NCBI GenBank assembly: GCA_043775985.1
Contig: JAYVRU010000320.1
Span: 1-62,017 of the forward strand
Direction of reading: 5' to 3'
Source: Candidatus Kuenenia sp.
GTDB lineage: Bacteria > Planctomycetota > Planctomycetia > Planctomycetales > Planctomycetaceae
Length of the DNA stretch: 62,017 nt
Under the pieces are notes generated by a model that saw only the letters and a program-made list of their open reading frames with translations, had not been told where the DNA came from and made no database searches. Both the position numbers and the translations under genes were made by a program. Position 1 is the first letter of the stretch, and each line of letters opens with the position of its first letter. Of the stretch, positions 19,966 to 41,953 are shown in pieces.

Positions 19966-22401
19966 CTATCTTGCGCGCGTCGGTGGCGCACACGAATGAA
20001 TCATGTGCTTGCGGCCGCCGATGACTTCGTGAAGTGCCGGGCTCTGCAGTCGTGTCATCAGCCTTGCACCACCTCCCTCAGCGGCCCCCTGAAACGCGGT
20101 GTACCGTGCATAAATGTCGAAGTCGCCGCCGATTGTGTAGCCCAGCGAAACGCTGCTGACTCGTGTCGTGACCGCCTTCATCAGCAATCCGCTTTTGGTG
20201 AGCGACACGTCTTTCTCCCACTCGCCGCTTGCCAGTCGAAACAATTCCGGAGGCAATCCGTGCGTGGAAAAATTATGCTGAAACAGTGCATTCAGATGAT
20301 CGCGATCTTTGTCGAGAAAGTCAGACTGCGATCCGGCAAGTTCGTCTTCATCCGTGGTTGGCAGAGTTCGTCGCCAACTGCCTGTCCAGCGAATGTTGCG
20401 AACTCGCAGCCCCTCCTGATCGGCATAGTGAAAGAGTCCGAAGAATCGCTGGTTCGTTGCGGGAAGGGTTTGTTCGGCGATGCGTTCGCCATTGAGACTC
20501 AGTGTGATCACGTCACCACGGAGACTCACTTGCATGCGATTCCATCCGTCCTGCTTCAGCGGCAACGGGATTGAACGCGGCGACAGCGAAGTGAGGTTCG
20601 CCGGATCAGCGGAAGTTTGATCGTAAATTCCATCCGTAAGCTGATGCAGTCCCACAAAGTCATTGTTCAGGATGAAGCACATTCGGTCGATTGCCGGATG
20701 AGCACACTTCGCTCCTGCTTCGTAGTAGAACTCGTATTCGATCGTGCCGTCCTCCAGCATTGGTCGATGATAGTACAACGCTTTTTCGTTCATCGTGCCG
20801 TGGTCAGATGCTGGAAACCGTCGGCCGACGATTTCGTCATCATTCAGACTCCATGTCAGTTGCTCCCACGGATCTTCCACAGCGTAGTAGTCGAACCAGG
20901 AATCCAGCCCGGGGCCGATCAGGTCAATCGTTTCTGGAATCGTTGGTGATCCGGAGATCAGAACGTTTCTTGCACCACCTTCATTGAGGTGTCGGCTGCG
21001 AATCCCAATCCATGGATCTCGAATCTTTCCGAACGTGTCCTGCTGCACCTTGTTTCCGTCAAGCGAAACGTCAGCCGTTTGGCTCTTGATATTTGTTCGA
21101 TGACGATACCAGTGGTCCATGCGGGTCGTCGGTCGCTCAGACTTGAAATCGCCGATTTTGCGACGCACCGTTCCAACAGAATGAAGATCGGCCTGATGAG
21201 CAGTGCCAACCCAGCGTGCGCCGACGATCATCTCCGCTTCGCGCCAGTTTGAAACGGTTGCGTCCGCTTCGAGAGTCAGATCGCCCAGCAATGGCATGTT
21301 GAAGTAGACGGCATCGTCACCATGATTCGCAACATTGATGACCTGAGATCGAGTAAACAGCCATTGAGCAGGCGGCATTCCGACGCCTCGTCTGGCAGCC
21401 AACGGATAAGTGACTGGAGTCCAGAATTTTGGAGCATCGACGATCGACGGAATTTCCTCGAGTGTTTTCGAGGTCAGGTCTTCGATCATCGCGGGCGTCA
21501 TTCGAAACGCAAGCCGGGTGAATTGCCGAGACCAGACGTCCATGTACGTGGGCCATCGTTCCGGGACAAGGACTTGCCGGACGTAATCAGCTATCGCCTC
21601 TTTCAGTTCCGGCGTCGTCGAAGCTTTGAGCATCAACAGCATTTCATCAGCACGGTACTGGCTGTTATGCGGATCACTGGCATTCGTCAGTTTCAAGAAC
21701 GCATCACAGTCCGCCAAAGCATCATCCCTGTTGTTCGCTGCAAGCTCAAAGAGGCACCGAAATGCAGCCAGCTGTTTCTCTTCAAGGCGGTTGCGCGGCT
21801 TGATTTTTGCAACCGCAGTTCGAACCAAGGCCAGCTTGTTCAACTGTGTTGCAGTGTCCAGCAAATCCACGGCCGGACAGATAATCTCTCCACCAGTCGA
21901 AATACGCTGGTCGCCAGCCTCTATTGGTTCGCCTTCTGCCTGTGAGGGATAGGTCGGAGAAAAAGCGAGGTTCAACCGCAGAGAAGTATGAGCGTCGTTC
22001 GGCAGGACCCATTGAGTCAAAAATGTAAATCGATCCTGAGGAGACATCGCCATGGCTCGTTCATGAACCCCCAGCGCCGCGTCAACGACGTGATCCTCAG
22101 CAAAGATCTCGCCAAGAGCGCGAGATCCTGCTTCGGAAGTCTGATCCGCAAACGCTGGCTGTAAGTCGACTTTTGTTCGAGTCACAAGCGTGAGCCGCAA
22201 GCCGCTAGCCGCGTGTACCTGCCTTGTGTCTTCTAAACATTCACCCGCAGCCAGCGCTTTGCGGCTGACAAAAACAAAAGCCTGCGATCCGAAAAGTATG
22301 AGTACGACCACAACGCAGCACATCAAGTGACCACGGCATCTTTGGCACGGGTGATGTGCTTTAATTAACGAACGCAGCCGCAGGAAATTCATGGCGATCA
22401 T
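19966..22401 (-). CDS. Paralogue 1 of 7: secreted DUF1583-like family protein (C-terminally truncated architecture)
   Basis: Family motifs: DRFTFLTQWVLPNDAHTSLRL, GGEIICPAVDLLD, HGDDAVYFNMPLLGDLTLEA, DPWIGIRS, YYHRPMLEDGTIEYEFYYEAGAKCAHPAIDRM, FFGLFHYADQEGLRVRNIRWTGSWRRTLP. Only a partial C-terminal GDFD module follows. Confidence 0.85.
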   Translation of the reverse strand: MIAMNFLRLRSLIKAHHPCQRCRGHLMCCVVVVLILFGSQAFVFVSRKALAAGECLEDTRQVHAASGLRLTLVTRTKVDLQPAFADQTSEAGSRALGEIFAEDHVVDAALGVHERAMAMSPQDRFTFLTQWVLPNDAHTSLRLNLAFSPTYPSQAEGEPIEAGDQRISTGGEIICPAVDLLDTATQLNKLALVRTAVAKIKPRNRLEEKQLAAFRCLFELAANNRDDALADCDAFLKLTNASDPHNSQYRADEMLLMLKASTTPELKEAIADYVRQVLVPERWPTYMDVWSRQFTRLAFRMTPAMIEDLTSKTLEEIPSIVDAPKFWTPVTYPLAARRGVGMPPAQWLFTRSQVINVANHGDDAVYFNMPLLGDLTLEADATVSNWREAEMIVGARWVGTAHQADLHSVGTVRRKIGDFKSERPTTRMDHWYRHRTNIKSQTADVSLDGNKVQQDTFGKIRDPWIGIRSRHLNEGGARNVLISGSPTIPETIDLIGPGLDSWFDYYAVEDPWEQLTWSLNDDEIVGRRFPASDHGTMNEKALYYHRPMLEDGTIEYEFYYEAGAKCAHPAIDRMCFILNNDFVGLHQLTDGIYDQTSADPANLTSLSPRSIPLPLKQDGWNRMQVSLRGDVITLSLNGERIAEQTLPATNQRFFGLFHYADQEGLRVRNIRWTGSWRRTLPTTDEDELAGSQSDFLDKDRDHLNALFQHNFSTHGLPPELFRLASGEWEKDVSLTKSGLLMKAVTTRVSSVSLGYTIGGDFDIYARYTAFQGAAEGGGARLMTRLQSPALHEVIGGRKHMIHSCAPPTRAR

Positions 22402-22595
22402 CGTATACGTACTCCGGCAGGGCGATCGTAGACTTCAGCGTGCACATCGATCGACTTCACCAAGACGCGGGCTTTCTTCCCGACTGCACCGGTATGGAGC
22501 AGGCAATGCAAGACGATCGGGCCGTCGAAGTGCTCGGTCTGATGGATCATTTCATCGGGTTCCGCGTTCTCATCGCATCTCATTCCTGTGGCCAT
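22398..22595 (-). pseudogene. Orphan relic of the family's C-terminal module between paralogues 2 and 1
   Basis: The 65-aa ORF ends ...EMIHQTEHFDGPIVLHCLLHTGAVGKKARVLVKSIDVHAEVY. This is clearly homologous to the last residues of paralogue 3 (...KDHSAGPIVLHCLLHTGATKQHSSVLLKSIQIHADSY) and resembles the paralogue 7 tail (LLRALIHTGGDNRKTVIRFKSFRIQAE). Confidence 0.7.
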
Positions 22596-25500
22596 TCTGT
22601 TGTCGCCGGCGGAGTGGTTGCTGAGAATGCAATGGTTTTGCCATCTGGCGACCAGTCACCGCCGGGAACGTCCCAACTCTCGGGCTGGCCGGGCAGTAGT
22701 CTGAGATCTCCCGGAGCATCACGATTCACAAGGAACAGTTTCGCTGTCGTCACCGTCGGTCGCTTCAGGGAAATCAGAACCTGCCGTCCATCAGGACTCA
22801 TCGTGAACTCTTCATTAATATGATCCGGTCCATCGTAGACGACTCCGAATCCTGTCGCAGAATCCGCATCTGCAACGGCCACAACGAACCCGGTTGCATC
22901 TCGTTTGCGGGCTTTAAACGCGATCGCGTTTCCATTCTGTGACCAACCAATATTCCAATAGACGTAACTAAACTGAGCGGATTGTTCAGTAGTCAACAGC
23001 TGGCGGCGTTTGTTAGTCTTTGTGTCCAACAGAACAACATTGTTGCCGAGAGCAAATGCAATGCACAGACCATCAGGTGACCACTGTGCACCCCAGCCAT
23101 TAGCGTCAATCAGCTTTCTTTCAGAGCCATCAGCTTTCATTCTCATGATGCCGGTTGAAGGCTGACTGAAGACAATCTCTTTGTTGTCAGGCGAAAAACT
23201 TGGCATACAACCTGGGCCGAGATCTTTTATAGATCTGCCTTCACTGTTCATAACGACGATACGAGAAGTCTCAACGCCGCCTTTTGACATGTCGCCAATC
23301 AGTTTCCGTCCGTCCGCCGACCACTCGAACGATCCCAATTGAATGTATTCAGGGCGTGGTTCTGCCAGCAATCGGACATCGGTGCCGTCCACGTTCATGG
23401 CATAGAGGTTGGTCAGCGATTTCGCATTCGCGTCCGGCTTCAGGGTCAGTCGTTCAGCTCGAATGCTGATCGACTTCCACATGACGCTCGTTTCCCCCTC
23501 GCCACTGCACATGGTGTGGAAATGCAGACCATCAGCGACTGAGGCACTGTCAGAGATCTCCTCCGTTTCCAGCACTCGAAACACAGACGATTCATTCTCT
23601 GCAAACAAGTAATAGAGCGTCGTGCCGCGTCGCGCCATTCGCAGGCGACCAGTGGCGGCATCTGTCTTCCTGGGTGGACGAGCAGAAAACGAACGACCTC
23701 CGTCCTGATGAATTTGAGACAGCGACGAGTGCAGTTCCTGACGTTGCAACTCGTCTCGAATTCGCAGGATGCGGCACTGCCGTCGCTTTTCATCGCTCAG
23801 TTCGACCACAAGCATAATGCAGCCATATTCATCGCCGACGGCTTTGAAGTCTTCAAAGCCGATTTCCATGTCAAAGTCGCCGTGAACCATGAACGGCAGG
23901 TTTACAAAAGTATCAAACCACGGCCCGCCACCGGGACGATCGATTTTCCATCCGTCCTTTCCCGGGTTGAGGGTGTCGCCGGGCTGATTCCGTCCTGCCG
24001 GGAAAAACCGGGCTGGAACCCCAGCCTTTGCAAAATCGTGCGTAAAGACATCCGAAAGCTTTACAAGATCCGCGTCGAGTTGCTCGGGACGTTTGTCAGC
24101 GGCTTCCTGTTCTTTTGGGCCGGGAAGTGTTTTCGGCCAGCTGCCGCTCATCCTGACGTTGCGAACTTTGGCTTCAGTCTGATCAGCGAAATGAAACAGT
24201 CCGAAGACTCGATCATTGGACGCGTCGATCCTTGTTTCGCAGATCTGGTGTCCGTTCAGATGCACAGTCGCCCTGTCGCTGTTGACAGAAATCGTCAGTT
24301 GATTCCATTCGCGTGGTTTCAGCGGAAGACGCGACAACGTCGTTTCGACAGGCTGTAGCTCAGACAAATTCTCGGGGCCCAGTTCAGTGCGGTCCAGCGA
24401 GCCATCGGTCAACCAGTGAATGCGGGCACCGTCTGGCTGAAGACAGAGCACCATCCGATCGAGCGCCGGGTGGACCTCCGTTTTTCCAGGTTCGTAGAGG
24501 AACTCGTAAGACATGGAACCGACCGAATCCAAAGGCCGTTGATATGCCAACAGACTTTCGCAAAACGTTCCCGCCAGTGCGCCACCATGACCAAGAATCA
24601 CACCCGACGATTTTTCGTCCGGTAAGTGTTCCCAGACCGCGCCCGAAGTGCCGACTGACACTTCATAGTACGGATACCAGCCTCGAAGATCTTCTGTCGC
24701 CGAGAGATCGACCGTTTCAGGAATGACCGGATTGCCCGTGATTCTGATGTCCCGTGCGGCCGCATGCAGTCGCCACCAGTTTCGGACGGCAAACCACGGA
24801 TCAAGCGTTGTGGCCGCACGCTCAGTGTGTGCGACAAGTCCATTCAGACTGGTTGTACAAGTGCCGTCGTAGACGACGCTGCGATGGTGAATCCAATCAT
24901 CAAATCCGGAGAACTTCAGGTCGCTCGCGACTCGACGTGCGCTGTTTCGAAACGTTCCCATCCAAAGATGCGATCGGTCACCATCATTGCCAACAAACGT
25001 GCCGGCTGCCATGGTCTGCGTCGTAAACGCCGTGACATCGCATTGCACTTCATAGTCACCGGTGAGAGGACTTCGAAAGAACAAATAGTCATCATCGTGT
25101 CCGCTGATCTTGAAGACCTGGGAGCCTGCTCGCCCCCAGCGTGACGCGGCCAGACCGGGGCCGCGCGTGAGAGCTCTGCGACGGCTGATCGGAATCCATT
25201 GCGTCAATTCAGCTTCCTCAGGTGACGAAACCTTCGGAGCCTGAGATTCCCGGTGACCATGCTCACCGGCAAGCGACGCAATCTGTGTGTGCCAATTTAG
25301 CTCATTGGGAAGAAAATCGAGCTGCGTCCGTTGTGAAAACAGAAAGCCTAAGATCTCATCAATTCCCGGTGCGGTCTGCTTCCGAACAATGTGTCGATAA
25401 ACGACAAGAGTCTCCGGCCACATCTCCGACACGGCTTTCGGACGAGAATTCCGAACGAGCTGCAGGAGCTGATCCGTTGCCTTCGCGGCTTCGTCGTTCT

Positions 25501-25993
25501 TCTGCAGATCAAGATGGATCATCGTTAGCAGAGCGGTCTTTACTCGCAGTTGCTCGTCTGTTCCAGGTTCCGGAATTGCATCGACTTTCTGCAGCAGTTC
25601 GACAAGCCGATCTGACTTCTTCGCCAGATCCAGGAGATCGAAAACAGGGGAGACGATTCGTCCGCCACGTGCATGCTCTTCAGTCGCATCGAACTTGTTT
25701 CCAGGTGCGGGATTTGTCTGAGTGAAGTCGCCGGTCATGCGAATCGTAGCATGGTCCTCGCACGGAAGAACCCAGCTCACGAGCCGATCAAAACGTGCTT
25801 CATCCGACATTTTCGCCGCACGACCACATACGGCTGCAGCGTTGTCAGCGAGAATGACTTCTTCAAACAACGCCGCAACGGGTCGTGGCTTTGGTGCAGA
25901 CGGCGTTTGCTGCCGCTGTATGGCGATGACTCGATCGGCCAGGAGCAGGCAGGTGACGCACAGCAGTGTTCCAAGAGGCTTCATCGTTTTCAT
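22580..25993 (-). CDS. Paralogue 2 of 7: DUF1583-like core, one GDFD module and a TolB/PD40-like beta-propeller
   Basis: Family motifs: ARFDRLVSWVLPCEDHATIRM, GGRIVSPVFDLLDLA, GHDDDYLFFRSPLTGDYEVQC, AYQRPLDSVGSMSYEFLYEPGKTEVHPALDRM, VFGLFHFADQTEAKVRNVRMSGSWPKTLP. The C-terminal repeats are FEWSADGRKL, SFSPDNKEIVF, QWSPDGLCIAF, TMSPDGRQVL and DWSPDGKTIAF. I prefer the signal-like start MKTMKPLGTLLCVTCLLLA (25993 or 25984) over the track start at 26071. Confidence 0.85.
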   Translation of the reverse strand: MKTMKPLGTLLCVTCLLLADRVIAIQRQQTPSAPKPRPVAALFEEVILADNAAAVCGRAAKMSDEARFDRLVSWVLPCEDHATIRMTGDFTQTNPAPGNKFDATEEHARGGRIVSPVFDLLDLAKKSDRLVELLQKVDAIPEPGTDEQLRVKTALLTMIHLDLQKNDEAAKATDQLLQLVRNSRPKAVSEMWPETLVVYRHIVRKQTAPGIDEILGFLFSQRTQLDFLPNELNWHTQIASLAGEHGHRESQAPKVSSPEEAELTQWIPISRRRALTRGPGLAASRWGRAGSQVFKISGHDDDYLFFRSPLTGDYEVQCDVTAFTTQTMAAGTFVGNDGDRSHLWMGTFRNSARRVASDLKFSGFDDWIHHRSVVYDGTCTTSLNGLVAHTERAATTLDPWFAVRNWWRLHAAARDIRITGNPVIPETVDLSATEDLRGWYPYYEVSVGTSGAVWEHLPDEKSSGVILGHGGALAGTFCESLLAYQRPLDSVGSMSYEFLYEPGKTEVHPALDRMVLCLQPDGARIHWLTDGSLDRTELGPENLSELQPVETTLSRLPLKPREWNQLTISVNSDRATVHLNGHQICETRIDASNDRVFGLFHFADQTEAKVRNVRMSGSWPKTLPGPKEQEAADKRPEQLDADLVKLSDVFTHDFAKAGVPARFFPAGRNQPGDTLNPGKDGWKIDRPGGGPWFDTFVNLPFMVHGDFDMEIGFEDFKAVGDEYGCIMLVVELSDEKRRQCRILRIRDELQRQELHSSLSQIHQDGGRSFSARPPRKTDAATGRLRMARRGTTLYYLFAENESSVFRVLETEEISDSASVADGLHFHTMCSGEGETSVMWKSISIRAERLTLKPDANAKSLTNLYAMNVDGTDVRLLAEPRPEYIQLGSFEWSADGRKLIGDMSKGGVETSRIVVMNSEGRSIKDLGPGCMPSFSPDNKEIVFSQPSTGIMRMKADGSERKLIDANGWGAQWSPDGLCIAFALGNNVVLLDTKTNKRRQLLTTEQSAQFSYVYWNIGWSQNGNAIAFKARKRDATGFVVAVADADSATGFGVVYDGPDHINEEFTMSPDGRQVLISLKRPTVTTAKLFLVNRDAPGDLRLLPGQPESWDVPGGDWSPDGKTIAFSATTPPATTEWPQE

Positions 25994-26090
25994 GTCCCCA
26001 TTTGCCGCACGGCGGCAAGTGTCTGGTTCCCCGTTGATTTTACAACCGGACGTCAATTCTTCGCAGGCCATTCAACCGGTTGGGGTCATA

Positions 26091-29000
26091 CTACTTTTCC
26101 TCAACCGAATTTAAGTTGTTCTCGCGCACTGGCGTATATGAGTCAGCATGAATCTGAATTGACTTCAACAAAACGCTCGAATGTTGCTTTGTCGCACCAG
26201 TGTGCAACAGGCAGTGCAGCACGATGGGGCCAGCAGAATGGTCCTTCTGGTAGATCACGCGATCGCGTTCTGCGTTCTTCGGACGAGCGAGCATGGTGTA
26301 CGTTCCGCCGTGTCGCGCGATTCTCAGGGAAGAAACCTGGTCGATCTCAAAACCACCATTCCAGGAGTACTCATCTTTCCCGGTCGGCAGTGTTCTATGT
26401 TGCTGCGACGACACTTTGTATTCCGTCGGAGTCCGGACAAACATTGAGGCAAATCGAGTCCGGTCGCCATCGAGCAACTGCACCTGCCACATCAGGGTCG
26501 TAGTTCTTCCGGCGGACGGCAGTGCGAGGCTTGCTGCGTCGAACGTGAGTGTCACATCGAAATCGCCCTGAATGGGGTAACGTGAACCAAAGAAAGCGGC
26601 CACCCAGCCATCGACACCCTCGGACTCCATCGTCCAACCTTTGTCCGCAGCCTTCCATTCTCGTGCATTTCCAGGCAGGGAAAAATTCTGTGGGTCCGGA
26701 GCAATCTTCATAAAGTCATGAACGACGAACACGGGAAATTGTTCACGCTGTTCGTTCAGACGGTCAACCTCGGCTTGCTGATTCAGCATTGCCATGCCCG
26801 ACAGCCGTTCCGCTCTGACGGATAGAGTTGTCCAGACTGTGCGGCAATGTGCCCGATCCGCAGCAAAAGCGGAGAGACACAGATCGCCAACTCTCAGATC
26901 CTGATCTCCCACATCATCCGTGCCGAATAACCGAAACACGCTGGAATCGTTTTCCGCCACAAGATAGTGCAGTGTCGTCCCAAGTCGCACCAGCCGCAAC
27001 GTGCCCTCCGTTCCCTCCCAGGCTTTCCACTGAGCAGCCCCCTGCCGATTGCCCTCCGGGTCAAGGTGGACGACTTCATGTTTGATCTCCTGACGATTGT
27101 TCGGTTGCCTGGTTCGGGCAATCCGAATCTCCTGACGAGTGCCTTCAAGAGTCGCCATCAACTGAATCCCGGAAGCGCCAGACTCAGAAAGACTCAGATC
27201 TCGAAACGAGGCTCTCAGGTCGAAATCACCGCCAACCTGCAATTGAGTCTGCAGATCCGACTGCGTCCAGTTGACGTTGCTCTGGAGGTCGATCACCACT
27301 CCCTCTTTGCTGGCCATAATTGACGAATTGCTTTTCGAAAAAGCATGCCCCGGCAGTTCTGAGTTGCGGAAATCGTGAAGAAACGACTTTGGCAATTCGG
27401 CTGCGGACTTTTCGAGCTCGAATGTACTGTTCTGAACCAGAAGGGGTTGCATGACTTCGTCGAGCGTCTTCGGCCAGTCGCCAGTCCAGATCATGTTCCG
27501 CACACGCGCCCCCGTTTGATCGGCAAAGTGAAACAGTCCAAACTGTCGATGATTGGATTCATCGAGCTGGAACTGGAAAATTTCGGTCCCATTGACGCTC
27601 AGGGAAACGCCATCGTTTTGTATTGAAACCCGACATTGATTCCAGTCATTCGCCTTCAATCGGATCGGAGTTGAGCCACCGATCTCATTTCCTCTGATCA
27701 TGTTGACGGGAGATTCCGGCTCAAACTGGAAGGCACCGTCGGTCACAAAATATGTCTGGACACTTTCCGGAGTAAGCAGCATCACCATTCGATCCAGGGC
27801 CGGATGAACCATGAACTCGTTTGGCACATAATAGAATTCGTATTCAATGACACCGTTCTCAACCATTGGCCGATGATGTAAGAGAAGGTTTTCTGCCTGA
27901 GTCCCGGCAAGACCGGGCTTCTTTCTGGAGACAAGTTCAAGCTCATCAGCAGTCCCCGCCACGGTCATCCATGAATTGCGATCGAGAATCGCATTGTGAA
28001 CAGGCGCAGCCTCCGGAGAATCAAAGTAAGACCACCAACCCGTTAGCTCAGAGTCATTGATCATATTCACCGTTCGGGGAATCTGCGGATCGCCCGTCAC
28101 TGTCAGGTTGCGGAAAGAGCCATGTCGCTGGCGGCGAGATCGCAGGGCTACCCAGGGAAACGAATCACCGTGCAGCGTTCTTTGCAGATATTTTCTGCCA
28201 TTCACGTAATGTGTGCAGACGCCGTCACGAACAACAATGTGGGCACTCAGCCATTCATTCGGGTACGTCATGGGCGGATCCAGAGTCACCATCTCCTGAT
28301 TCAGCAAGCCACCAACTTCTGCTTTGCTGAGCAGCCAGTGGTGAGCCGCGTAGACTCCGGCATAGGCCAGCGCAATTTCTCGATAATTGAACGCTGTGAC
28401 TTCACATTCAACATCAAAGTTGCCGGTCAGCGGAATTGGCAAGTACAGAAAATCATTTGAGTGACCTCCGAGTCTCTGCGTGGTATTTCCCGATGCACGC
28501 CAGGCCGCCGATGGCCAGCCGCACCCGCGAGATTCAGCCGTCATGACTTCGGCAGGGATCCAGCCTTGAAACGTTCGTTGTTTGAGGTACTGCTCTTTCG
28601 CACCAATATCATCCCGCCGACTGACCCGCGCAAAGCACTGAAAAACGTAGTTATCCCAAGCGGTGCGGCCACTCCACCGAGCCTGATCGATTTGTCGGTC
28701 AAAAATGCACGCCGCGAAATCCTTCATCTCTAAAGCGTCGATAGAATGCTCCATCCCGTAAGCCATCGCCAGAGTTTCCGGCCACCAGCGAACGCCATGA
28801 TTCTCCCCGCGAACTCGAACCAGTTCTGTAAGCAGCCCCAGCAACTTCGCCGCCGATTCCGCATCCTTCTGGGCGACAGCGATCATATACAACAACGCCA
28901 GCCGCGCTCGTTCGCGATGCGGTTCGCCGGCATCGCCGACAGCTTCGACTCGCTGCCGAAGCTCGTCCAGCCGCCCGGTTTCTTCGGCGGCAGCAATCAA

Positions 29001-31450: not shown

Positions 31451-31484
31451 ATTGTCAGTGTCTTTCGAAATGATTTCTTCTATT

Positions 31485-31679
31485 GAGCCACAAGGCGCTA
31501 GCCGCGGATGTTGTATTTAGTCCTACCCGAGTTACTTCCGTTTAACCCGACTCGAAGAGGAGGCAGGGCACTTCATAACCTCCTCTGCGAGTCGGGTTAA
31601 ACAACTCGATGAACACGTGCCTGGCCGCTCGTGTCGTCACATGATTATATCAACACCCGCGGCTAGCGCCTGGCGGCTC
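31485..31679. repeat. Composite element A: REP unit (fwd), 24-bp-stem hairpin, REP unit (rev)
   Basis: Forward unit gagccacaaggcgctagccgcggatg at 31485-31510. Hairpin arms gtttaacccgactcgaagaggagg (31540-31563) and cctcctctgcgagtcgggttaaac (31579-31602), with 1 mismatch. Reverse unit cacccgcggctagcgcctggcggctc at 31654-31679, abutting the stop of paralogue 5. Confidence 0.9.
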
Positions 31680-34600: not shown

Positions 34601-35349
34601 CATTCGGTGGGACCATGCGACTTGCCTGCGTGAATTTGTGAGTCTTCAATGCTGGCCAGAAACAACAAGGCTTCGTCGAGCAACAACACACCTCGCTCCG
34701 CCGCCGTCCAGAGCAGCAGAGTTTCAGGCATACGATCCTGTAGTCCATCAAATCGTTGGTTCACAAAACGCTGGTAGAGTTCATCAGTACTGCGAGCCGC
34801 CTCATTCAAATCCCCCTTTGCGATCGCAATCATCGCCAGCAAAGAAAACTGACATCGCTGCTGAACCTCCCCCTGCACGGTGGCGGACTGCACGGCAAAT
34901 CGCAGTTCATCCAGCTTGCCCAATTCTTTTGCTGCGTCAATCAAATCAAAAACGGGCGACACGAAAATGCCGCCAGTGCGAATTCGATTTTGAGTTCGCT
35001 GAACCCCCGCCTGTATTCTGGCCACATCAACAGGATGATTCGAGACTACCGATTCCGGTGGGTCGGTCGACGTTAATTTTCCGAGCAGTCGAAACTCCCG
35101 GTGCTGTTTCCCCGGCAACACGTGAGATTTGAGAAGCTCATACCGAGCGTCCACAGGGAGACTCTTCGCCGCCTCGCGCAGCCCAAAGACGTTATCTGAC
35201 ACCACATCGTTTTCGAACAAATCACCAACATCAATCGCTGCCGGCTTGTCATCCGCCAAGGCGCAGCATGAAGCAATGCTCAACGCCATCATCACAGCTG
35301 GCAGCAAGAGGCGGATCTTCAACAGAACAATTTGGACGGCTCGGTTCAT
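31678..35349 (-). CDS. Paralogue 5 of 7: DUF1583-like core, one GDFD module and a TolB/PD40-like beta-propeller
   Basis: Family motifs: ARYELLKSHVLPGKQHREFRL, GGIFVSPVFDLIDAAKELGKLDEL, KQDDEFLLFTSPLRGNYTLEC, DPWLAIRNLSSGVGSIKNVRITGEPVVP, VTYEFFCEDGNSIVHPALGRR, TFGLFYYCDQTEARVRNVVLKGDWPKL. Propeller repeats: EWSHDGKSIIY, SLSPDGSKIAI, AWSPDGRFIAW, SWHPDGNQVLF, DWSPDGHQIVF. Confidence 0.9.
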   Translation of the reverse strand: MNRAVQIVLLKIRLLLPAVMMALSIASCCALADDKPAAIDVGDLFENDVVSDNVFGLREAAKSLPVDARYELLKSHVLPGKQHREFRLLGKLTSTDPPESVVSNHPVDVARIQAGVQRTQNRIRTGGIFVSPVFDLIDAAKELGKLDELRFAVQSATVQGEVQQRCQFSLLAMIAIAKGDLNEAARSTDELYQRFVNQRFDGLQDRMPETLLLWTAAERGVLLLDEALLFLASIEDSQIHAGKSHGPTEWDVLIIHLIGRIRHHKLPPEQRIQPWTAAPGLKSWHWVTRSHSWSNGLGMPPGHIQSSHGKVDVFAKQDDEFLLFTSPLRGNYTLECLCTGFGWKEIHPLINGRWITPVWHHESVQTGEMYRVDPEIKLQPKLSRVDNWLRFRVDVRDGVCSRYINSRLISRDTLPKEHDPWLAIRNLSSGVGSIKNVRITGEPVVPDEVRISELRSAAWEASAKLESDGIDSTATQQRPVSHLLGWNPWHEDPWTPDDNSWKLESDALGVTQIVGQHSPELSGTGAERLLRYFWPLVWDSEVTYEFFCEDGNSIVHPALGRRAFLLERDGVKCHDTTNGVWETASIDPLNRTAPGNRVAVDSLPLKSGEWNRMAVQMTGDVIRLRLKEVVIYESEIAATNDRTFGLFYYCDQTEARVRNVVLKGDWPKLVPAVAEQELQGTETDVLDRDRNALAEFFDFDFTDKTDEEVESEFVITDNKRQSVQIQRIVDGKLVTSSRGSDKSNWDVFQSPDGLHMRGAAGPKESSTSSVGPRMVISGDFDVIAEFSDLKLMASDNGVCAIYLGPRVIQKEFEAHLLFRGMVQHPNTPLRELTQVEILSSGAKGFRYEYPAIFGDECRSGRLRVARRGSMWHYLIAPLDSDNFRLLHSMAGPDIPILSGNFLLRISCYAQGAEASEVSAIWKKISVRAESLEDARRLGLRNLYLLDVDNSAPPDDQKVQTPAPDKVKKLADASEVYLQLKWPEWSHDGKSIIYEMNNGQYSLLSQITLSNSQQRSFAIGTLPSLSPDGSKIAITNDGRGVSIIPATGGNVVAKDLDPAGHSGAWSPDGRFIAWISNKRIVVLDVKTDEQRLIPSDDQPSPFRAIEKGIGWSRDSKSLAFKTRLTKDKGDAVAIVAIDLDKPDELNVLCTGVRLHSDVSWHPDGNQVLFSGLDPPTGTPQMFIVKRDDPEKLIPVPGQPRNWRIIDCDWSPDGHQIVFTAEPPP

Positions 35350-35394: not shown

Positions 35395-35562
35395 GCGAGC
35401 CTCAAAACGCTTGCGGCCTGTTGATTTTGTCGCTCAATCAGCTGCTGGAGGCTAACCCACGTTTAAATTTGCTGTGTTTTTTTGGCAAAACCGGACGCTA
35501 GCGCGTTCCGGCTGATTTCGGTCGATAATTAATCAACACCCGCGGCTAACGCCTTGCGGCTC
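35395..35562. repeat. REP cluster: degenerate units, a type-2 unit and a type-1 reverse unit
   Basis: Type-2 unit ccggacgctagcgcgttccggctgat at 35491-35516. Type-1 reverse unit cacccgcggctaacgccttgcggctc at 35537-35562. The stretch aatttgctgtgttttt...aaaaccggacgctagcgcgttccggctgatt...aatcaaca is collinear with 56714-56780. Confidence 0.85.
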
Positions 35563-35636
35563 ACGGGAAGTTCACAAGACAGAGTCGCACCAGCATATCG
35601 ATTCACGTATGAATTTTCTCCTGCAGTAATAGGAAT

Positions 35637-38294
35637 CTACCTCTCTGGTTTGTTTTCTGCCTTTGTTTCAAGGTTCATTGCTGGACCTGTCATGCGTTGT
35701 GCTCGGATGCGGAGATTCTTCCAGATGATGCTGACTTTGCTGACACCATCAACACTGGAGTTCATTCCCGCGACCAGCCTGGCTCCGTCGAATCGAGACG
35801 GCTGCGTGGCCGAGTCTTCAACGTGGATAAGCCGGAATACAGTCGATTTTTCCGGGGCAAACATTGTGTAAGTCTTGTCCGCTCGTCGCGCGAGACGCAG
35901 TGTCCCCGATGTCACGGCTTCGGACCGCTTGTCAAGGAGTCCCTGATGAAACGGCTTGAGCTGCAGCAGGTCATGGTTGACCATTTTTTGCGGAAACTTG
36001 CCTGGATCAACATTCGTGGTCATCGAAGCTGCATGGTGACTGATCGGTTCGTCGGTGAGAGCCATTTGCAGCATTGCGTGGCAGAGTCCGTGTTTTGTGG
36101 GATTGATGTTTAGTTCCTCAAACGCAGCCGTAATGTCGAAATCACCTTCCACAACCAGCAACGGCGTCACGCAGACTCGACTATAGCCCTTGCCATTCAT
36201 TTCAGCATTGATGTGCAGACCATCGGCCTTCGCTTTCACATACTTGTCAGCCCCCTGATCCTGAATCTGAAACAGATTCAGCGGCAAGCCATTTTTCGCG
36301 AAGTTATGAGAGAACTCCGCCGTGAGCTGCGGTAACCCGGCGTCGAGTTCATCGGTTGTTTTGTCTCGAAGTTCCTGATCATGCAGCGCGGGCAATGTCT
36401 TCGGCCAATCACCCCGCCACCGCACGTTGCGAACTCGGATTTCTGTGTCGCCTTCATAGTGAAACAATCCAAAGATCCGCTCGTTTCCTTCGGCGTCCAT
36501 CGTACCACGATAAACCAATTGGCCATTCACCAACACCTCAAGCACGTCACGACGAATCTTTAGCAGCGTATGATTCCATTCGCCTGCCTTGAGCAGCAAT
36601 GGGCTCAAGGCAGAATCATCTGCATCCGGACGACGCTCATTGAGTGGGTCGGCACCGGTGCGATCGAAATGAGCGTCGGTGATGCGATGAATCATGACGC
36701 CTTCGGGATCAAGCAGCAGGACATCGCGGCCAATCGCAGGATGGACGTGTGACTTTTCTGGCTCAAAGAAGAATTCGTAGTCGATCTCACCATCTTCCAT
36801 TACAGGACGTTGATACTGCAGCAGACTTTCTTTGGCAGTCCCGGATCTCGATGCCGTATTGAGCCCCACAATCATGCCAATTCCCGACGCGTCGGTTTCA
36901 TGCCACCAATCATGTTCACTTCGATCACCGATGCCGCCGCCGTAGTATGAGGTCCAGCCGTGAAGCTGATTGTTGTCTGACAACCTGAGCGTGTCTGGAA
37001 TCTGCGGATTTCCCGTGATACAGAGATCCCGAACTCGACCAAACGTCGAAAATGGGACCCGGATCGCAAGCCACGGATCGTGACTGACCGGCAGCGTCTC
37101 CTCATGCACCAATCGACCATCGAGATAAAACGAACAGCGGTTGTCTCTGACCCTGGCCTGAAGCCGCATCCAATCGGTGATCTCGGACAATCGCGGACTG
37201 ATCTTTCCGATCGGCAGTTCACTGCCCACGTGACCCGCAAAATACGCGTCGTGCGAAAACGCGGGGACGACCCACGTACCAGCGACGAGCAATTGAGCTT
37301 CACGATAGTCAAAACCAGTCGACTCGCATTCAATCTCATAGTCGCCCGTTAACGGGCTGCGAAAATACAGGTAGTCATCGTTGTGGTGGGACAGCAGCCG
37401 GACCGATTTTCCGTCCCAGTCCCAATGTGCAACAGGGAAGCCGAGACCATGCGTCCCGAAGTCCTTCGCACTCACTGGAAACCATTCGTGCATGCGTGGC
37501 GCGTCGCCGAACTTTACCACCTGCAGTACCGTTTGCTTGTAGAGACTCAACTGCCCCAGCAATGACGGAATCAAACGATCCCACGAATCCGGGCCGTTGT
37601 TCTTTACTGATCGAATCTGTTGCTGCAGCATCCGAAGAAGAATCTCTTCGGTCGGTTCGCGAAGTCGCGCATGATGAATCGCTTCCGCCACAACAAGCGT
37701 CTCTGGCCACCGATCCTGTAGATCGACAAACACAAGTCTGCGATGCCGGTCGTAAAGATCATTCATCGCTTCACTCGCTGCGGCGAAGTCATCGTCGGCG
37801 ATATTTATCAGAGTCAAAAGGGCCAGCCGGGCTCGTTGCTGGGATTCAGTCTGACTTGAAATCGCGACGGTTCGCTCGCGGAGGTCAGCGACTCGCCCTG
37901 ACACTTTCGCCGCTGCAATCAAATCGAACACAGGTGATACAAGGCTGTCTGAGGCACGACGCTCAATATTTTGAGCAGTATTGGATGCGAAATGGGCGGT
38001 GAGCCGAATTGAGTCATGGCTCTGCGATGGCAACACCCAGTCTGTCAGAGTCCTGTATCGTTGATCAACCGGGAGCGAAATCGAGTTGTCGACAATATGG
38101 TCCGTGTTGTCGGCGAGGACAGTTTCCTCAAAGAGAACGCCGATCGTGCCTTGCATTGGCTGCTTGACCGTATTCCGTTGCGCTGGCTGTGCGGCGAATG
38201 GTTCGCCCTGTGACTGACCGTTCGCCACTTTTATAGCGATCAGCAAAATCAAAATGAATTGGCTGAAATATTTCATCGCCCATAAACGAAACAT
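35637..38294 (-). CDS. Paralogue 6 of 7: DUF1583-like core plus one GDFD module
   Basis: Family motifs: QRYRTLTDWVLPSQSHDSIRL, DSLVSPVFDLIAAAKVSGRV, HHNDDYLYFRSPLTGDYEIECES, DPWLAIRVP...ITGNPQIP, LLQYQRPVMEDGEIDYEFFFEPEKSHVHPAIGRD, IFGLFHYEGDTEIRVRNVRWRGDWPKTLP. One module contains EGDFDITAAF. Confidence 0.9.
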   Translation of the reverse strand: MFRLWAMKYFSQFILILLIAIKVANGQSQGEPFAAQPAQRNTVKQPMQGTIGVLFEETVLADNTDHIVDNSISLPVDQRYRTLTDWVLPSQSHDSIRLTAHFASNTAQNIERRASDSLVSPVFDLIAAAKVSGRVADLRERTVAISSQTESQQRARLALLTLINIADDDFAAASEAMNDLYDRHRRLVFVDLQDRWPETLVVAEAIHHARLREPTEEILLRMLQQQIRSVKNNGPDSWDRLIPSLLGQLSLYKQTVLQVVKFGDAPRMHEWFPVSAKDFGTHGLGFPVAHWDWDGKSVRLLSHHNDDYLYFRSPLTGDYEIECESTGFDYREAQLLVAGTWVVPAFSHDAYFAGHVGSELPIGKISPRLSEITDWMRLQARVRDNRCSFYLDGRLVHEETLPVSHDPWLAIRVPFSTFGRVRDLCITGNPQIPDTLRLSDNNQLHGWTSYYGGGIGDRSEHDWWHETDASGIGMIVGLNTASRSGTAKESLLQYQRPVMEDGEIDYEFFFEPEKSHVHPAIGRDVLLLDPEGVMIHRITDAHFDRTGADPLNERRPDADDSALSPLLLKAGEWNHTLLKIRRDVLEVLVNGQLVYRGTMDAEGNERIFGLFHYEGDTEIRVRNVRWRGDWPKTLPALHDQELRDKTTDELDAGLPQLTAEFSHNFAKNGLPLNLFQIQDQGADKYVKAKADGLHINAEMNGKGYSRVCVTPLLVVEGDFDITAAFEELNINPTKHGLCHAMLQMALTDEPISHHAASMTTNVDPGKFPQKMVNHDLLQLKPFHQGLLDKRSEAVTSGTLRLARRADKTYTMFAPEKSTVFRLIHVEDSATQPSRFDGARLVAGMNSSVDGVSKVSIIWKNLRIRAQRMTGPAMNLETKAENKPER

Positions 38295-38362
38295 GTTCGT
38301 CGTCCAGTCAAAGTCTGGCAGTATTCACTTTGCCCTGCGGCGAGTGTATCAAAATGCTGACG

Positions 38363-41300
38363 TTAGCCATCCACAATCTTCTCGGCCTGAATGCGAAAGG
38401 ACTTAAACCTGATGACTGTTTTACGATTGTCTCCGCCCGTGTGAATCAACGCTCGAAGCAGTCCCAGCGGGACCGGATCTGTTCCCATTTTCATCGCACC
38501 CAGAATCTGAGGAGGCGAATCGGGTTCGCCCTGGAAAATCTGATAGATCACGTCGCCTCGGCGAGCCAGTCTGAGCAGGCTGGCGGTGGTTTCCGGGCGA
38601 GACACGATTTCCTGATAGTTAAACGTCCCGTCGCCACGGATGCGACGCTGCTGAGTTTCCGCCTTTCGATCACCACCGTGGTGAATCGAAAACTTAACTT
38701 CGCTGTTCGATTTGCGTTTATCGTTGAATTCCGCCTGCAGCAGAACGACGGATTCGTCGCCCGACTTGCAAGGTTCCATGTGCACAACATCCAGCTCCAG
38801 CGAAATGTCGAAGTCCCCGTCCAGAGCCAATCTAGGAACCAAGCCGGCCGCCTGCCAGTTTTCGCTGCCTGGGACCGTAATCGTCAGTCCATCCTTGTCC
38901 TGCGAATAGGTCGCGTTCGTGTGGCTCCACACATCGAAAGGACCGATCCCAGTTGTACCGGCGACAGGCTTTGACCTCGCGAAATTGTAGACACGCTCGG
39001 CCAGCAGCGAGGAGCGTTCTTCGTCGAGCAACGCAACGGACTTCAGGGACTGCTCCGGCCCGCCAAAGGATGATTGAGCCTGCACCGATAACTTCTTCCA
39101 GACGGTTTGCGAGAATCCGGATTTGTGTTGCCCGACAATAAGTTTTACCGTGCCATCGGCATCAGAAACGGGCTCTGTATGGATCAGACGAAACTCAGTC
39201 GAATCATCCTCCGCGTAAAGATAGGACAACTTGATGCCTCGCCGAATCAGCCGCATTCTTCCGGTGTTCGATTCTTCGGGCGGGTTGTCGAAGAAGAGAT
39301 ATTGAGTCTCCCCGCCTCGCTTCTCAAAAATCGCTGCCTGAATCAATTGCTCGCGCGTGTCGGGAGGAACGCCGAACACTTTGCGAAACAGAAAGCATTC
39401 TCGGGACCTGTCATCATCAAGAGTCACCGCGAGTTGGATATTGCCTTCCCCATAATCGAGCTCCGTTTGAGTAGCAAAATCTTCGAAACTGGCCGTGATA
39501 TCGAAATCTCCGGTCAGCAAAACCGGTGAGACGATGGAATAGTTGACATACTCGCCACCGGGACGCCTCAACTGGGCGCCATTCTGAACCTGCTTGAGAT
39601 TCTCTTCCCATTTTTCACCAGCAACGGAAAACAAGCCTGATGGCACGCCCTTGCTAAAGTCATGTTCGAAGACAAGTGGCAACGCATTGGGGTCACCGAT
39701 CAATTTTTCGACTTCATCACTCGCAAGCTCCTGCTTCAGCGGTGCAGGCAGTTCCTTCGGCCAGTCGCCGCGCCAGCGAATGTTTCGGACTCGAGCTTCT
39801 GTCTGGTCGGCATAGTGAAACAATCCAAACGTACGCAGATTGGTGGCTTCGAGTTCCCGCGAAAACACCAGAGTGCCATTTAACGCTACATCGACGGTGT
39901 TACCTCGCACCGTCAATGCCATCAAGTTCCATTCGTTGGGCTTGAATGGCAACAGCCCTTTGTGTTTCTGATGCTGCGGTTCGGCAGTGACATTGTCCGG
40001 GCCAAGCGATGTTGGATCGTGGCGACCATCAGTGATCCAGTGCACATCAACGCTTGTGGGATTCAGCAGCAGCGACAGCCGATCCAGCGTAGGATGCACG
40101 AGCGACTGCCCGGGCTGATAGAAGAATTCGTACTCAATCGTGCCATCCTCAGCCATCGGGCGATGGTATCGAAGCAGACTCTGGCTGAACGTGCCTTCGC
40201 GATCGAGCCGCCGGGGACTGACGAGTTCGGTCGAATCGCCGAGTTCTTTTTGGCCGACTTTTGTTTGGCCGAGTTCCCGCAAGTCTGTGACGAACCAGTC
40301 TTCGCCTCGCCCGCCGACTGATTCATCGAAGTACGCTAACCAGCCGCCGAGGTCCGGTGTGATCAGTTTCACTTCGTCTGGGATGACCGGATCACCGAGC
40401 ACACGCAAGTTCTTCACTGATCCGTTGGTGTACCACCAACTGTGAATCGAAAGCCACGGATCGTCGTTCACGCCATGTTTTCGTTCATAAATTTTTCGTC
40501 CATTCGTCAACGTTGTGCGCGTTTCGTGATCCACGAGCATCCGAAGTCGCATCGACTCGAACATGCGGGTCAACGGAGGATTGATCGGAATCGCACCTCC
40601 TTCAATACGAAAACTGGCATTCACACAACTCTGCCGGTCATGTCCCGCACCCGCCCAATAGCCTCCGAATCCAAGATGAATGTCGCGAAAGTCAAAAGTT
40701 GTCAGATCCGCTTCAACCGAGAAGTCTCCAGTCAGCGGAGATGCAAAATACAGATAGTCATCGTGATGACCGGCCAGATGAGTCGCCTTGCCCGCCTCGA
40801 CACGCCACACAGGAATCGGGTACCCAGCTCCGCGCGTTTCCGACGTCATCCGGCTCACTGGTACCCAGTGTTTCAGTGATGGCTGCTGAGACGCCGCTTC
40901 ATCGGGCTTCTTGCCGACTTCCAATGCTGCATCAAGACGAAACTGCCTGCCAATAATCTGTCGAATCCAACGTTCATTTCGTGGAGGCGTTCCAGCCCAT
41001 GCGTGCTGATGCAGCAGTACTGCCAGTTCGCGAGCCAGCTCGCGAGTTTCAGCAAAGTCGCCGCCAGCCCAAACGGCGACAGCTTCAGTATGTGCTTCCC
41101 GGGCAGATCCCGGCAACGATCCGGCCAATGCCAGGACCTCGCGCATGCGAAGTTCCGCAACAGCGGCATCCTGTTGAGCAATCGCGACGAGAAGCTGAAA
41201 CACGATTCGAGATTTCTGATCCTCTGGCGATGTCACCTTCCACCGGTTAACAACCGTTTGAATTTCATCCAGCCGATTCAAACTGGCCGCGACGTTGACC

Positions 41301-41692
41301 AGATCGATTGCGGGCGAAACAAGATCACCGCCTGTAAATTTGCTGTGTTCCGATCCGGACGAATCACTTGCAACTCCGCTGGATCGGTCAACAATCGGAG
41401 CAGGGCAGGTCGGAGTAAACTCACACTGCATTCGCAACGAATGGTGGTCGTCGGACGGCAAGACCCACTGTGACAGAAATTCAAACCGCGCTGTCTCATT
41501 CAGTCGCAACGCCTGTTCATGAATCAGCAGGGCCTCCTGTGCCACATGATCATCAGCGAAGATCGCCCCCAATGCGGATCGAACACCCGCTGGCCGTCTT
41601 GCGTCGTCGTCCTGCGGCAGGGCAGCGACAAGCAACGGCGTGGAATACGGCATCGCTGTGATTATGAAAAGCAGAGTTCTGCAGAACCGCAT
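38363..41692 (-). CDS. Paralogue 7 of 7: DUF1583-like core plus two GDFD modules
   Basis: Family motifs: ARFEFLSQWVLPSDDHHSLRM, GGDLVSPAIDLVNVA, GHHDDYLYFASPLTGDFSVEADL, DPWLSIHS...VLGDPVIP, LLRYHRPMAEDGTIEYEFFYQPGQSLVHPTLDRL, TFGLFHYADQTEARVRNIRWRGDWPKELP. Modules contain TGDFDITASF and DGDFDISLEL. I prefer the signal-like start MRFCRTLLFIITAMPYSTPLLVAA (41692) over the track start at 41743. Confidence 0.9.
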   Translation of the reverse strand: MRFCRTLLFIITAMPYSTPLLVAALPQDDDARRPAGVRSALGAIFADDHVAQEALLIHEQALRLNETARFEFLSQWVLPSDDHHSLRMQCEFTPTCPAPIVDRSSGVASDSSGSEHSKFTGGDLVSPAIDLVNVAASLNRLDEIQTVVNRWKVTSPEDQKSRIVFQLLVAIAQQDAAVAELRMREVLALAGSLPGSAREAHTEAVAVWAGGDFAETRELARELAVLLHQHAWAGTPPRNERWIRQIIGRQFRLDAALEVGKKPDEAASQQPSLKHWVPVSRMTSETRGAGYPIPVWRVEAGKATHLAGHHDDYLYFASPLTGDFSVEADLTTFDFRDIHLGFGGYWAGAGHDRQSCVNASFRIEGGAIPINPPLTRMFESMRLRMLVDHETRTTLTNGRKIYERKHGVNDDPWLSIHSWWYTNGSVKNLRVLGDPVIPDEVKLITPDLGGWLAYFDESVGGRGEDWFVTDLRELGQTKVGQKELGDSTELVSPRRLDREGTFSQSLLRYHRPMAEDGTIEYEFFYQPGQSLVHPTLDRLSLLLNPTSVDVHWITDGRHDPTSLGPDNVTAEPQHQKHKGLLPFKPNEWNLMALTVRGNTVDVALNGTLVFSRELEATNLRTFGLFHYADQTEARVRNIRWRGDWPKELPAPLKQELASDEVEKLIGDPNALPLVFEHDFSKGVPSGLFSVAGEKWEENLKQVQNGAQLRRPGGEYVNYSIVSPVLLTGDFDITASFEDFATQTELDYGEGNIQLAVTLDDDRSRECFLFRKVFGVPPDTREQLIQAAIFEKRGGETQYLFFDNPPEESNTGRMRLIRRGIKLSYLYAEDDSTEFRLIHTEPVSDADGTVKLIVGQHKSGFSQTVWKKLSVQAQSSFGGPEQSLKSVALLDEERSSLLAERVYNFARSKPVAGTTGIGPFDVWSHTNATYSQDKDGLTITVPGSENWQAAGLVPRLALDGDFDISLELDVVHMEPCKSGDESVVLLQAEFNDKRKSNSEVKFSIHHGGDRKAETQQRRIRGDGTFNYQEIVSRPETTASLLRLARRGDVIYQIFQGEPDSPPQILGAMKMGTDPVPLGLLRALIHTGGDNRKTVIRFKSFRIQAEKIVDG

Positions 41693-41953
41693 GAGATCCT
41701 CTTTTGCCATTCCAATTGACGTCCTCAGAATCCACGCGGTCAATCAGGGGATTAACATCCCCCGCTCGCCGAAGCCATGCATCAACCACGATCGCTGCAG
41801 TATAACCAATGCAGCGCCAGATGACGGAACGACGTTTCACCATGCCTCACTTTGGTGCCAGCGATCCCATCGCTGTCGTCCAAACCCGTGGAATCACGCG
41901 GTGAATTTCTGAGAAAGCCGTGTTCCGAAATGCCACGGTGCTTTTGAATTAGT

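Follow-up and report, generated by a model that had tools for sequence, protein, structure and literature searches.

The window analyzed here, a 62,017-nucleotide stretch of contig JAYVRU010000320.1 from a planctomycete assembly (Candidatus Kuenenia sp., GCA_043775985.1), carries seven tandem co-oriented genes, G1 to G7, which code for large proteins of the DUF1581/DUF1583 family. We consider it reasonably probable that these genes are ancient paralogues forming the output regulon of a dedicated extracytoplasmic function (ECF) sigma factor, and that their products are exported ligand-binding proteins. The observations on which this reading is built are the homology of the proteins, their fold, their phyletic range, the conserved synteny of arrays with the sigma gene, and a promoter motif with its specificity for these genes.

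The array is a further example of a known, uncharacterized family and would not surprise a planctomycete specialist; what is new is the link to an ECF sigma unit and the promoter motif. Families of this kind dominate planctomycete genomes, and DUF1581/DUF1583 accounts for about 1000 clusters at 50% identity, in Planctomycetota only. Conserved multi-paralogue operons, together with a dedicated ECF sigma factor, a promoter motif and a candidate sensor, would turn an anonymous domain of unknown function (DUF) into a testable regulon, and two cultured, completely sequenced strains (Fuerstiella marisgermanici and Maioricimonas rarisocia) carry the system. Furthermore, the DUF1583 family is now linked to the equally unexplained DUF1549/DUF1553/DUF1501 proteins.

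Homology, domains and fold of the array proteins

A check of the open reading frames (ORFs) of the window recovered seven co-oriented minus-strand ORFs at 19966-41743, with exactly the coordinates given in a preliminary description of this DNA made from the letters alone (Table 1). From G1 to G7 the gaps between them are 178, 19, 83, 227, 287 and 68 bp, a range of 19-287 bp where about 19-290 bp had been reported. An all-against-all BLASTP comparison, one of the checks proposed in that description, gave 23-33% protein identity with E-values of 1e-33 to 1e-142; at the sequence level the mutual homology of the seven proteins is beyond doubt, and the ordered set of motifs first read by eye reappeared in a seven-way alignment. 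Likeness between the paralogous genes at the DNA level is confined to eight blocks of 52-110 nt within the FGLFHYADQTEARVRN region, at 70-81% identity, close to the earlier estimate of about 70% in the best blocks. The signal-like N-termini were recovered as well, as a hydrophobic, signal-peptide-like segment in all seven proteins. The true start of G7 is likely the ATG at 41692, 17 codons downstream of the listed TTG, and that of G2 likely lies 29 codons downstream of the listed one (a gene caller gives 1134 amino acids (aa), with the start at 25984). G5 may, to judge by its N-terminus (…LSIAS-C…), be a lipoprotein.

The family that the preliminary description had named proved to be the right one, the Pfam models lying far above their cut-offs and in canonical order. 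DUF1581 (PF07619) is present in all seven proteins (53.9-101.3 bits, gathering cut-off 27), and C-terminal to it all seven carry a nearly full-length DUF1583_N (PF20407; 140-188 bits, cut-off 22.9). DUF1583-C (PF07622) exceeds its cut-off in six of the seven; G4, like its entire subfamily, has no such domain, and in G1 the match covers only model positions 2-95 of 256. A second DUF1583-C module of GDFD type, forming a fourth sandwich, is found in G3 and G7, and the propellers of G2 and G5 match the TolB model TIGR02800 with E-values of 1e-11 to 1e-14, at 52 bits against a cut-off of 343. NCBIfam holds no family for the protein core and returned just these sub-threshold matches. The subfamily types represented are the short, the four-sandwich and the propeller type.

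Among 76 related loci, gathered from one genome per GTDB species and cited below by numbers such as L033, 75 are titled Planctomycetota or a subgroup of it, and L033 is titled merely 'bacterium'. An exhaustive homologue search returned 1062 clusters at 50% identity (E<=1e-10), which include many proteins of 1500-4500 aa carrying the core at the C-terminus; the only name that the source databases give to homologues is 'DUF1583 domain-containing protein'. A full-text literature search turned up no paper that deals with what DUF1583 or DUF1581 does, its single DUF1583 match being an unrelated phage paper, and PADLOC assigned none of the seven proteins to a defence system. The window proteins share domain order and restriction to Planctomycetota with the Pfam entries DUF1581, DUF1583_N and DUF1583-C, which record no function; the present analysis adds the folds of the domains, the subfamilies, the array order, and the linked sigma factor with its promoter.

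G6, which has the bare core architecture, was modelled with AlphaFold2 from an alignment of 84 sequences, and the model is confident (predicted local distance difference test, pLDDT, 89.9; predicted template-modelling score, pTM, 0.86). It comprises a signal helix, an all-helical domain of about 210 aa resembling tetratricopeptide repeats (TPR) and three beta-sandwiches (Table 1). A Foldseek search of the PDB gave 477 matches at E<=1e-3, and the 50 listed of these are all concanavalin A (ConA)-like/LamG-type or related beta-sandwich proteins. The top match is BT3469, a tandem DUF1080 protein (E 9e-12), followed by neurexin LNS, laminin LG, galectin-8, GH43 C-domains and SPRY domains. The jelly-roll fold suggested in the preliminary description is, as far as the model can tell, right at the fold level. 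A separate model of the helical domain (pLDDT 86.8) had no significant match in a fold search, which returned only generic TPR-like folds (best E 0.012, template-modelling score about 0.4), among them YbgF/CpoB TPR, YfgM and BcsC TPR. Sandwich 2 is the most conserved part of the protein and holds many invariant aromatic and polar residues, a pattern that would be expected of a specific binding pocket.

The same fold is found in the DUF1080 proteins (PF06439; BT2-type; 4jqt, 3imm, 3s5q), which like the window proteins are exported, have a concanavalin-like jelly roll and are abundant in Planctomycetes (PMC5673643); the strand pattern 'K-x-x-EWN ... LNG ... RN(I/V)' is common to both. This raises a rival explanation, that sandwich 2 is an active DUF1080-type 3-keto-glycoside 1,2-lyase/hydratase and the array a set of glycan-degrading enzymes, which we regard as improbable. 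PF06439 does overlap DUF1583_N and reaches its gathering score of 26.8 bits in G1 (27.8), G3 (37.4) and G6 (28.7), the other four proteins scoring below it, but of the 187 model positions these matches span only the C-terminal third, about 116-186. BT3469 does head the Foldseek matches, but a sandwich-2 profile run against PDB sequences retrieved only a 37-residue stretch of 3s5q/3imm (E about 5e-3), with LamG/SHBG nearly equal, and no BT2-type enzymes; a whole-family profile gave marginal DUF1080 and LamG matches only.

The conserved DUF1080 active-site set includes Lys245, Gln273 and His275 (bioRxiv 10.1101/2024.03.25.586180). When the BT2 set E103, N134, E164, Q166, Y190, K245, Q273 and H275 is compared with the array proteins, only the strand around K245 aligns. 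The family has an FGLFH stretch in which F, G and H are invariant and L and F nearly invariant; in an alignment made by eye from the C-terminal PF06439 matches, with no tool-printed alignment behind it, this stretch lies opposite the DUF1080 GLQxH and places an invariant Phe at the position of the substrate-binding, catalytic Gln273. Furthermore, no Gfo/Idh/MocA oxidoreductase or sugar-isomerase-like partner was found near the array among the ORFs of >=150 aa scanned, and no Gfo/Idh/MocA oxidoreductase in the cassette of L077/L078. Membership of the DUF1080 enzymes, tried as an assignment, is consequently not supported, and the hydrolase option of the preliminary description, which had started from what is a generic strand motif, falls with it. 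The relationship is one of superfamily or fold, and, unlike DUF1080, the DUF1583 domain is embedded in a much larger protein with a TPR-like part and three sandwiches.

A linked ECF sigma unit and a predicted promoter motif

Clustering of the genes that flank family members in the related loci revealed two recurrent divergent neighbours of the arrays: the gene of an ECF sigma factor and that of an approximately 850-aa DUF1549/DUF1553 protein. In the window both genes are present, followed by two further conserved genes of the unit that code for a DUF1501 protein and an EF-hand protein; this sigma cassette at 49.9-56.6 kb had gone unseen in the preliminary description and is a new addition here. 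The window sigma factor has the domains Sigma70_r2 and r4_2 (TIGR02937, 81 bits against a cut-off of 42.9) and is orthologous, at 48-85% identity, to the sigma factor placed divergently beside DUF1583 arrays in 17 other loci. With the pair that adjoins the array in L050, the sigma factor shares 85% and the DUF1549/DUF1553 protein 83% identity; with the pairs of other loci the values are 48-66% for the former and 45-63% for the latter. Two complete genomes with gene calls independent of ours, those of Maioricimonas rarisocia Mal4 and Fuerstiella marisgermanici, show the order EF-hand<-DUF1501<-PSCyt2/PSD1<-sigma | ->DUF1583 x5, and in L010 and L023 collinearity reaches the MoxR gene, as in the window.

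The DUF1549/DUF1553 (PSCyt2/PSD1) protein begins with a conserved cytoplasmic segment of about 75 aa, which is followed by one transmembrane helix and a periplasmic part with DUF1549 and DUF1553, in which an invariant CAQCH (the CXXCH haem-c signature) stands within 'RLECAQCHDHPFEPW'. Its predicted topology is that of an anti-sigma factor or sensor, and it is a candidate trans-membrane haem-type sensor. Its domains followed by a DUF1501 gene represent the standard planctomycete PSCyt/PSD1-DUF1501 pairing (Pfam descriptions, PMC2754498), but in the window protein the usual signal peptide and cytochrome-c PSCyt1 head (e.g. L009 13452-15362) are replaced by a cytoplasmic segment and a transmembrane helix, and it is therefore a candidate for trans-membrane signalling. 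Orthologues of the protein are uniform in length (830-870 aa) and form over 200 clusters at E<=1e-60.

FecI-FecR and the Bacteroides polysaccharide utilisation loci are ECF-sigma/anti-sigma modules that stand beside their target operons. The window unit resembles them in having a minimal sigma2-sigma4 protein followed by a single-pass protein with a large periplasmic domain, in its divergent position beside an operon for exported proteins, and in a bipartite promoter of the same AAC/CG-rich type before the sigma gene and its targets. It differs from them in that the periplasmic part is DUF1549/DUF1553 with CXXCH, with no recognised anti-sigma domain and no TonB-dependent receptor, and in that the targets are DUF1583 proteins. 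The ECF classification literature, in those parts of it that were accessible to our search, makes no mention of DUF1549, DUF1553 or DUF1583.

The promoter was sought by bipartite k-mer enumeration in the sigma-array intergenic regions of 12 loci, followed by construction of a weight matrix. The motif obtained, TGCGTGAA-N15-GCGAC with fixed spacing, points toward the array in 11 of the 12 regions and toward the sigma gene in eight. The best matrix match of the whole window (score 20.6) lies about 130 nt upstream of G7, and the second-best (19.0) abuts the sigma gene, both pointing toward the gene concerned, the maximum over 20 shuffles being 16.9. A third predicted site occupies the G6-G5 gap, and in L049 a motif site likewise lies 57 nt upstream of the G5 orthologue. 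The related loci, 1.14 Mb in all, yielded 54 matches, compared with 6-9 in shuffled sequence. Of 50 lead family genes outside the training loci, 15 are preceded by the motif, compared with four of 279 control genes (Fisher p 2e-10), as are nine of 17 lead genes in the training loci; it was found before none of 48 internal array genes and none of seven giant members. In Maioricimonas rarisocia and Fuerstiella marisgermanici the same sites precede the sigma gene and each sub-array.

This distribution is what would be expected of an autoregulated ECF sigma factor with a DUF1583-family regulon whose arrays are read from the head. The window would then probably hold two transcription units, G7-G6 and G5 to G1, and co-transcription of parts of the array, which the preliminary description had raised as possible from the short gaps, becomes plausible given a motif that marks lead genes and is absent before internal genes in other genomes. 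Scans of the array for sigma-70 promoters and intrinsic terminators gave counts at or below shuffle expectation and are uninformative on transcript boundaries.

Further motif matches lie outside these genes. A weak copy at 49720-49678 is upstream of the DUF1579 gene, with a spacer resembling that of the G5 promoter, and a match at 3789-3831 (+), with a core score of 18.2, lies about 550 nt upstream of ORF 4378-5178 (+), which has no Pfam match; the latter site may be due to chance or may mark a further regulon member.

From the sequence and model data we infer sigma/anti-sigma function, co-transcription, an export compartment and a ligand, in the following scheme. An extracytoplasmic cue, possibly redox, would act on the DUF1549/DUF1553 sensor, which until then would hold the sigma factor and would now release it. 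Sigma-RNA polymerase would initiate at the bipartite motif before its own operon, G7 and G5, and the arrays would be transcribed through as polycistronic units. The exported proteins would serve as ligand-binding modules in the periplasm or at the surface, and the distinct conserved paralogues would supply different specificities or different subunits. On the strength of the modelled fold, binding in the envelope is our best guess, and a glycan or other envelope polymer is probably the ligand.

Several observations weigh against this scheme. The sigma unit of the window lies 8.2 kb from G7, compared with 579 bp in L050, a separation which points to insertion or rearrangement. No Pfam anti-sigma domain was detected in the DUF1549/DUF1553 protein, even at E<=1, and the window sigma factor could be placed in no specific NCBIfam subfamily. 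On the core matrix the sigma-gene site is weaker (14.5), 30% and no more of the independent lead genes attain the matrix threshold, and the promoter evidence is in silico throughout. The case for a glycan ligand consists solely of the fold and the conserved aromatic and polar residues.

The ligand need not be a glycan. The proteins could instead take part in an envelope-stress response as scaffolds that bind other proteins, or as factors akin to chaperones, their TPR and TolB-like propeller modules holding proteins or peptidoglycan-associated partners in the manner of Tol-Pal; we hold this to be unlikely, though with a real chance of being right. LamG/neurexin-type sandwiches frequently bind proteins, but the best match of the core is to a DUF1080-type carbohydrate-active fold. 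The weak matches of the helical domain include TPR proteins such as YbgF/CpoB, but none is significant; the propellers do match the TolB model, but far below the family cut-off and in two of the seven proteins only. ECF sigma factors typically answer envelope stress, and in R. baltica an ECF sigma factor beside a PSD1/PSCyt2 protein (RB10049/RB10051) is induced by heat, cold and salt (PMC2754498). No R. baltica protein was among the 120 listed of 211 matches in either homologue search, and RB10049/RB10051 is at most a possible orthologue of the window pair.

A bolder extension of the regulon reading, to which we give rather low credence, is that the arrays and the sigma/DUF1549-DUF1553(CXXCH)/DUF1501/EF-hand unit constitute a phylum-specific envelope sensing-and-response system, whose conserved, non-interchangeable paralogues of the long, short, four-sandwich and propeller types would form one hetero-oligomeric machine, in the periplasm or at the surface, that captures or remodels a polymer. 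If true, it would give a first functional handle on the expanded PSCyt/PSD/DUF1501 families of Planctomycetes and Verrucomicrobia.

Age, gene order and decay of the array

Six-frame ORFs of the 76 related loci were searched with a hidden Markov model of the family, and a neighbour-joining tree was built from the two-sandwich core of 123 members. Tandem co-oriented arrays of up to 5-7 members are common in these loci. Short proteins of the G4 type (roughly 700 aa) occur in at least 11 arrays, beside longer members; their clade also includes a few longer or fragmentary ORFs, and none of its members is the sole family ORF of a locus. No two window paralogues are sisters in the tree, each grouping with members from other genomes (Table 1); the nearest relative of G6, in L001, is 95% identical to it. 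Gene order is also kept, as G5-G4-G3 in L049 and as G7-G4-G2 in L032. With orthologues elsewhere in kept order, the duplications are therefore older than the divergence of these genera.

The array is consequently an ancient, operon-like, conserved set, and neither a local expansion nor an assembly artefact. The preliminary description had proposed long-term diversifying duplication rather than recent amplification: its age is borne out by the 23-33% identity and the tree, but the diversifying part is not, since orthologues stand in the same order elsewhere. The synteny check that it suggested gave the same answer, paralogue order being kept in other Planctomycetota, complete genomes included. 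A rival explanation would see in the region a contingency or variable surface-protein locus, still undergoing diversifying amplification in this particular lineage, or a repeat mis-assembly. Seven tandem paralogues, two family relics, a comparatively recent partial copy of G5 and many repeats resembling repetitive extragenic palindromes (REP) do indicate that the region recombines, but the divergence of the paralogues, the orthologues of every one of them in the same order elsewhere, and the lack of defence-system matches make this highly improbable. The longest DNA match between paralogues is 110 nt at 75% identity, and because such repeats are too short to collapse or mis-join, the array is not an artefact of assembly.

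Signs of decay are nevertheless present, together with some recent recombination. G1 is 56% identical to its closest relative, in L046, with homology only over 19996-22119; relative to that protein it lacks about 320 C-terminal residues, its sandwich 3 breaks off some 95 residues in, and two REP-like repeats lie within its first 80 codons. By its sequence, G1 is probably degenerate. Two family relics absent from the listing of the preliminary description were found: one in the G2-G1 gap, and the internally deleted copy of G5 in the segment between array and sigma gene.

Feature coordinates, repeats and neighbouring genes

Table 1. Coordinates of the features of the window. Groupings are those of the neighbour-joining tree; G6 domains are given in residues of the AlphaFold2 model.
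Feature	Position	Strand	Remarks
G7	38363..41743	-	1126 aa, TTG start; first gene of array; groups with L054, L050 and L032_5194
G6	35637..38294	-	885 aa; bare core architecture; modelled member; groups with L001 and L002
G5	31678..35349	-	1223 aa; core + C-terminal PD40/TolB-like beta-propeller; groups with L049_560 (orthologue)
G4	29411..31450	-	679 aa; short subfamily, stops after sandwich 2; groups with clade of short members
G3	26091..29327	-	1078 aa; core + fourth GDFD-type sandwich; groups with L049_6560 and L024
G2	22580..26071	-	1163 aa; core + PD40/TolB-like propeller; groups with L032_11077
G1	19966..22401	-	811 aa; probably degenerate; groups with L046
Family relic, G2-G1 gap	22428..22571	-	48 codons, 58% identical to C-terminal end of G3, aa 1017-1064
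Internally deleted G5-copy relic	47120..47353	-	aa 403-442 fused to aa 1184-1222; DNA 85-89% identical to G5
G6 signal helix	aa 6-24		
G6 all-helical, TPR-like domain	aa 46-253		
G6 sandwich 1	aa 271-437		contains DUF1581
G6 sandwich 2	aa 447-628		DUF1583_N
G6 sandwich 3	aa 659-869		DUF1583-C
G7 TPR-like helical domain	40919-41581	-	
G7 sandwich 1/DUF1581	40367-40867	-	
G7 sandwich 2/DUF1583_N	39767-40342	-	
G7 sandwich 3/DUF1583-C	39065-39676	-	
ECF sigma factor	49931..50626	+	sigma2 + sigma4 regions only; true start probably a few codons downstream
DUF1549 (PSCyt2) + DUF1553 (PSD1) protein	50650..53181	+	candidate anti-sigma/sensor
DUF1501 protein	53191..54666	+	conserved third gene of sigma unit
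EF-hand protein	54845..56644	+	conserved fourth gene of sigma unit
Predicted ECF-type promoter of G7	41863..41905	-	-35 CGCGTGAT 41900-41893, -10 ACGAC 41879-41875
Predicted internal promoter, G6-G5 gap	35572..35614	-	TACGTGAA 35609-35602, GCGAC 35588-35584; core score 18.2
Predicted autoregulatory sigma promoter	49890..49932	+	CGCATGAT 49895-49902, GCGAC 49916-49920; abuts sigma gene
Array-to-sigma segment, 8.2 kb	41744-49930		WD40 gene, two beta-helix ORFs, G5 relic, DUF1579 gene
WD40 gene	42151-43110	+	
Two beta-helix ORFs	44073-46331	-	
DUF1579 gene	48984-49628	-	
REP-like copies	22191-22214, 22245-22273, 31484-31507, 31657-31680, 35540-35563, 41953-41985		
REP-like copies, continued	53192-53269, 54678-54830, 56642-56978, 61319-61446, 61960-61983		

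The REP-like element, CCGCGGCTAGCGCCTTGCGGCTCA, is about 30 nt long and occurs in at least 13 copies in the window, compared with none expected, mostly as inverted pairs at gene boundaries; it is also found in L050. Because copies overlap them, the annotated start codons of G1 and of the DUF1501 gene are doubtful, and the true start of the latter is probably downstream. An ORF at 61466-61942 (+), flanked by inverted copies at 61423-61446 and 61960-61983, has an IS200-like Y1 transposase domain and a weak match to REP-associated tyrosine transposases (RAYT), and looks like the RAYT of this repeat family.

In the G5-G4 gap (31451-31677) an exceptionally stable nested transcript hairpin is predicted (-112.9 kcal/mol, z = -9.8), in which two inverted REP copies surround an inner stem, itself about 30 bp long. 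Within the array, this hairpin may be an mRNA stabiliser, an attenuator or a processing site. A second hairpin repeat, GGCGAGCGGGGGATGTTAATCCCCTGAT, is present at 41743-41770, 56803-56833 and 56916-56943 of the window and at 2626-2653 of L050, the first of these copies lying directly 5' of the G7 ORF. A search of the window against Rfam at gathering thresholds was negative.

The EF-hand gene is followed directly by a MoxR (AAA_3)-DUF58-BatA/VWA set, 56969-61346 (+). The MoxR gene of this set has counterparts after the EF-hand gene in L010 and L023, at 77-81% identity, and the set may belong with the sigma unit to one conserved neighbourhood. Giant proteins of 3500-4050 aa with the family core at the C-terminus are found in L061, L066, L068, L070, L074, L075 and L076 (Singulisphaera sp., Gemmataceae, Pirellulaceae, Pirellulales and unclassified Planctomycetota metagenome-assembled genomes), and a divergent MoxR-type AAA ATPase adjoins five of these seven (L066, L068, L070, L074 and L076).

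On the other side of the array, a DUF1559/N-terminal-methylation (pseudopilin-like) gene at 18327-19367 (-) lies 598 bp downstream of G1; the planctomycete family to which it belongs is very large, and in the other loci it showed no conserved association with the arrays. An FHA-EAL protein is coded at 13942-15069 (+). A second ECF sigma gene, 12469-13173 (-), shares 4 nt with the start of a Ser/Thr kinase gene, 7139-12472 (-), whose product of 1777 aa has many WD40 repeats, an arrangement that represents the planctomycete ECF-kinase pairing.

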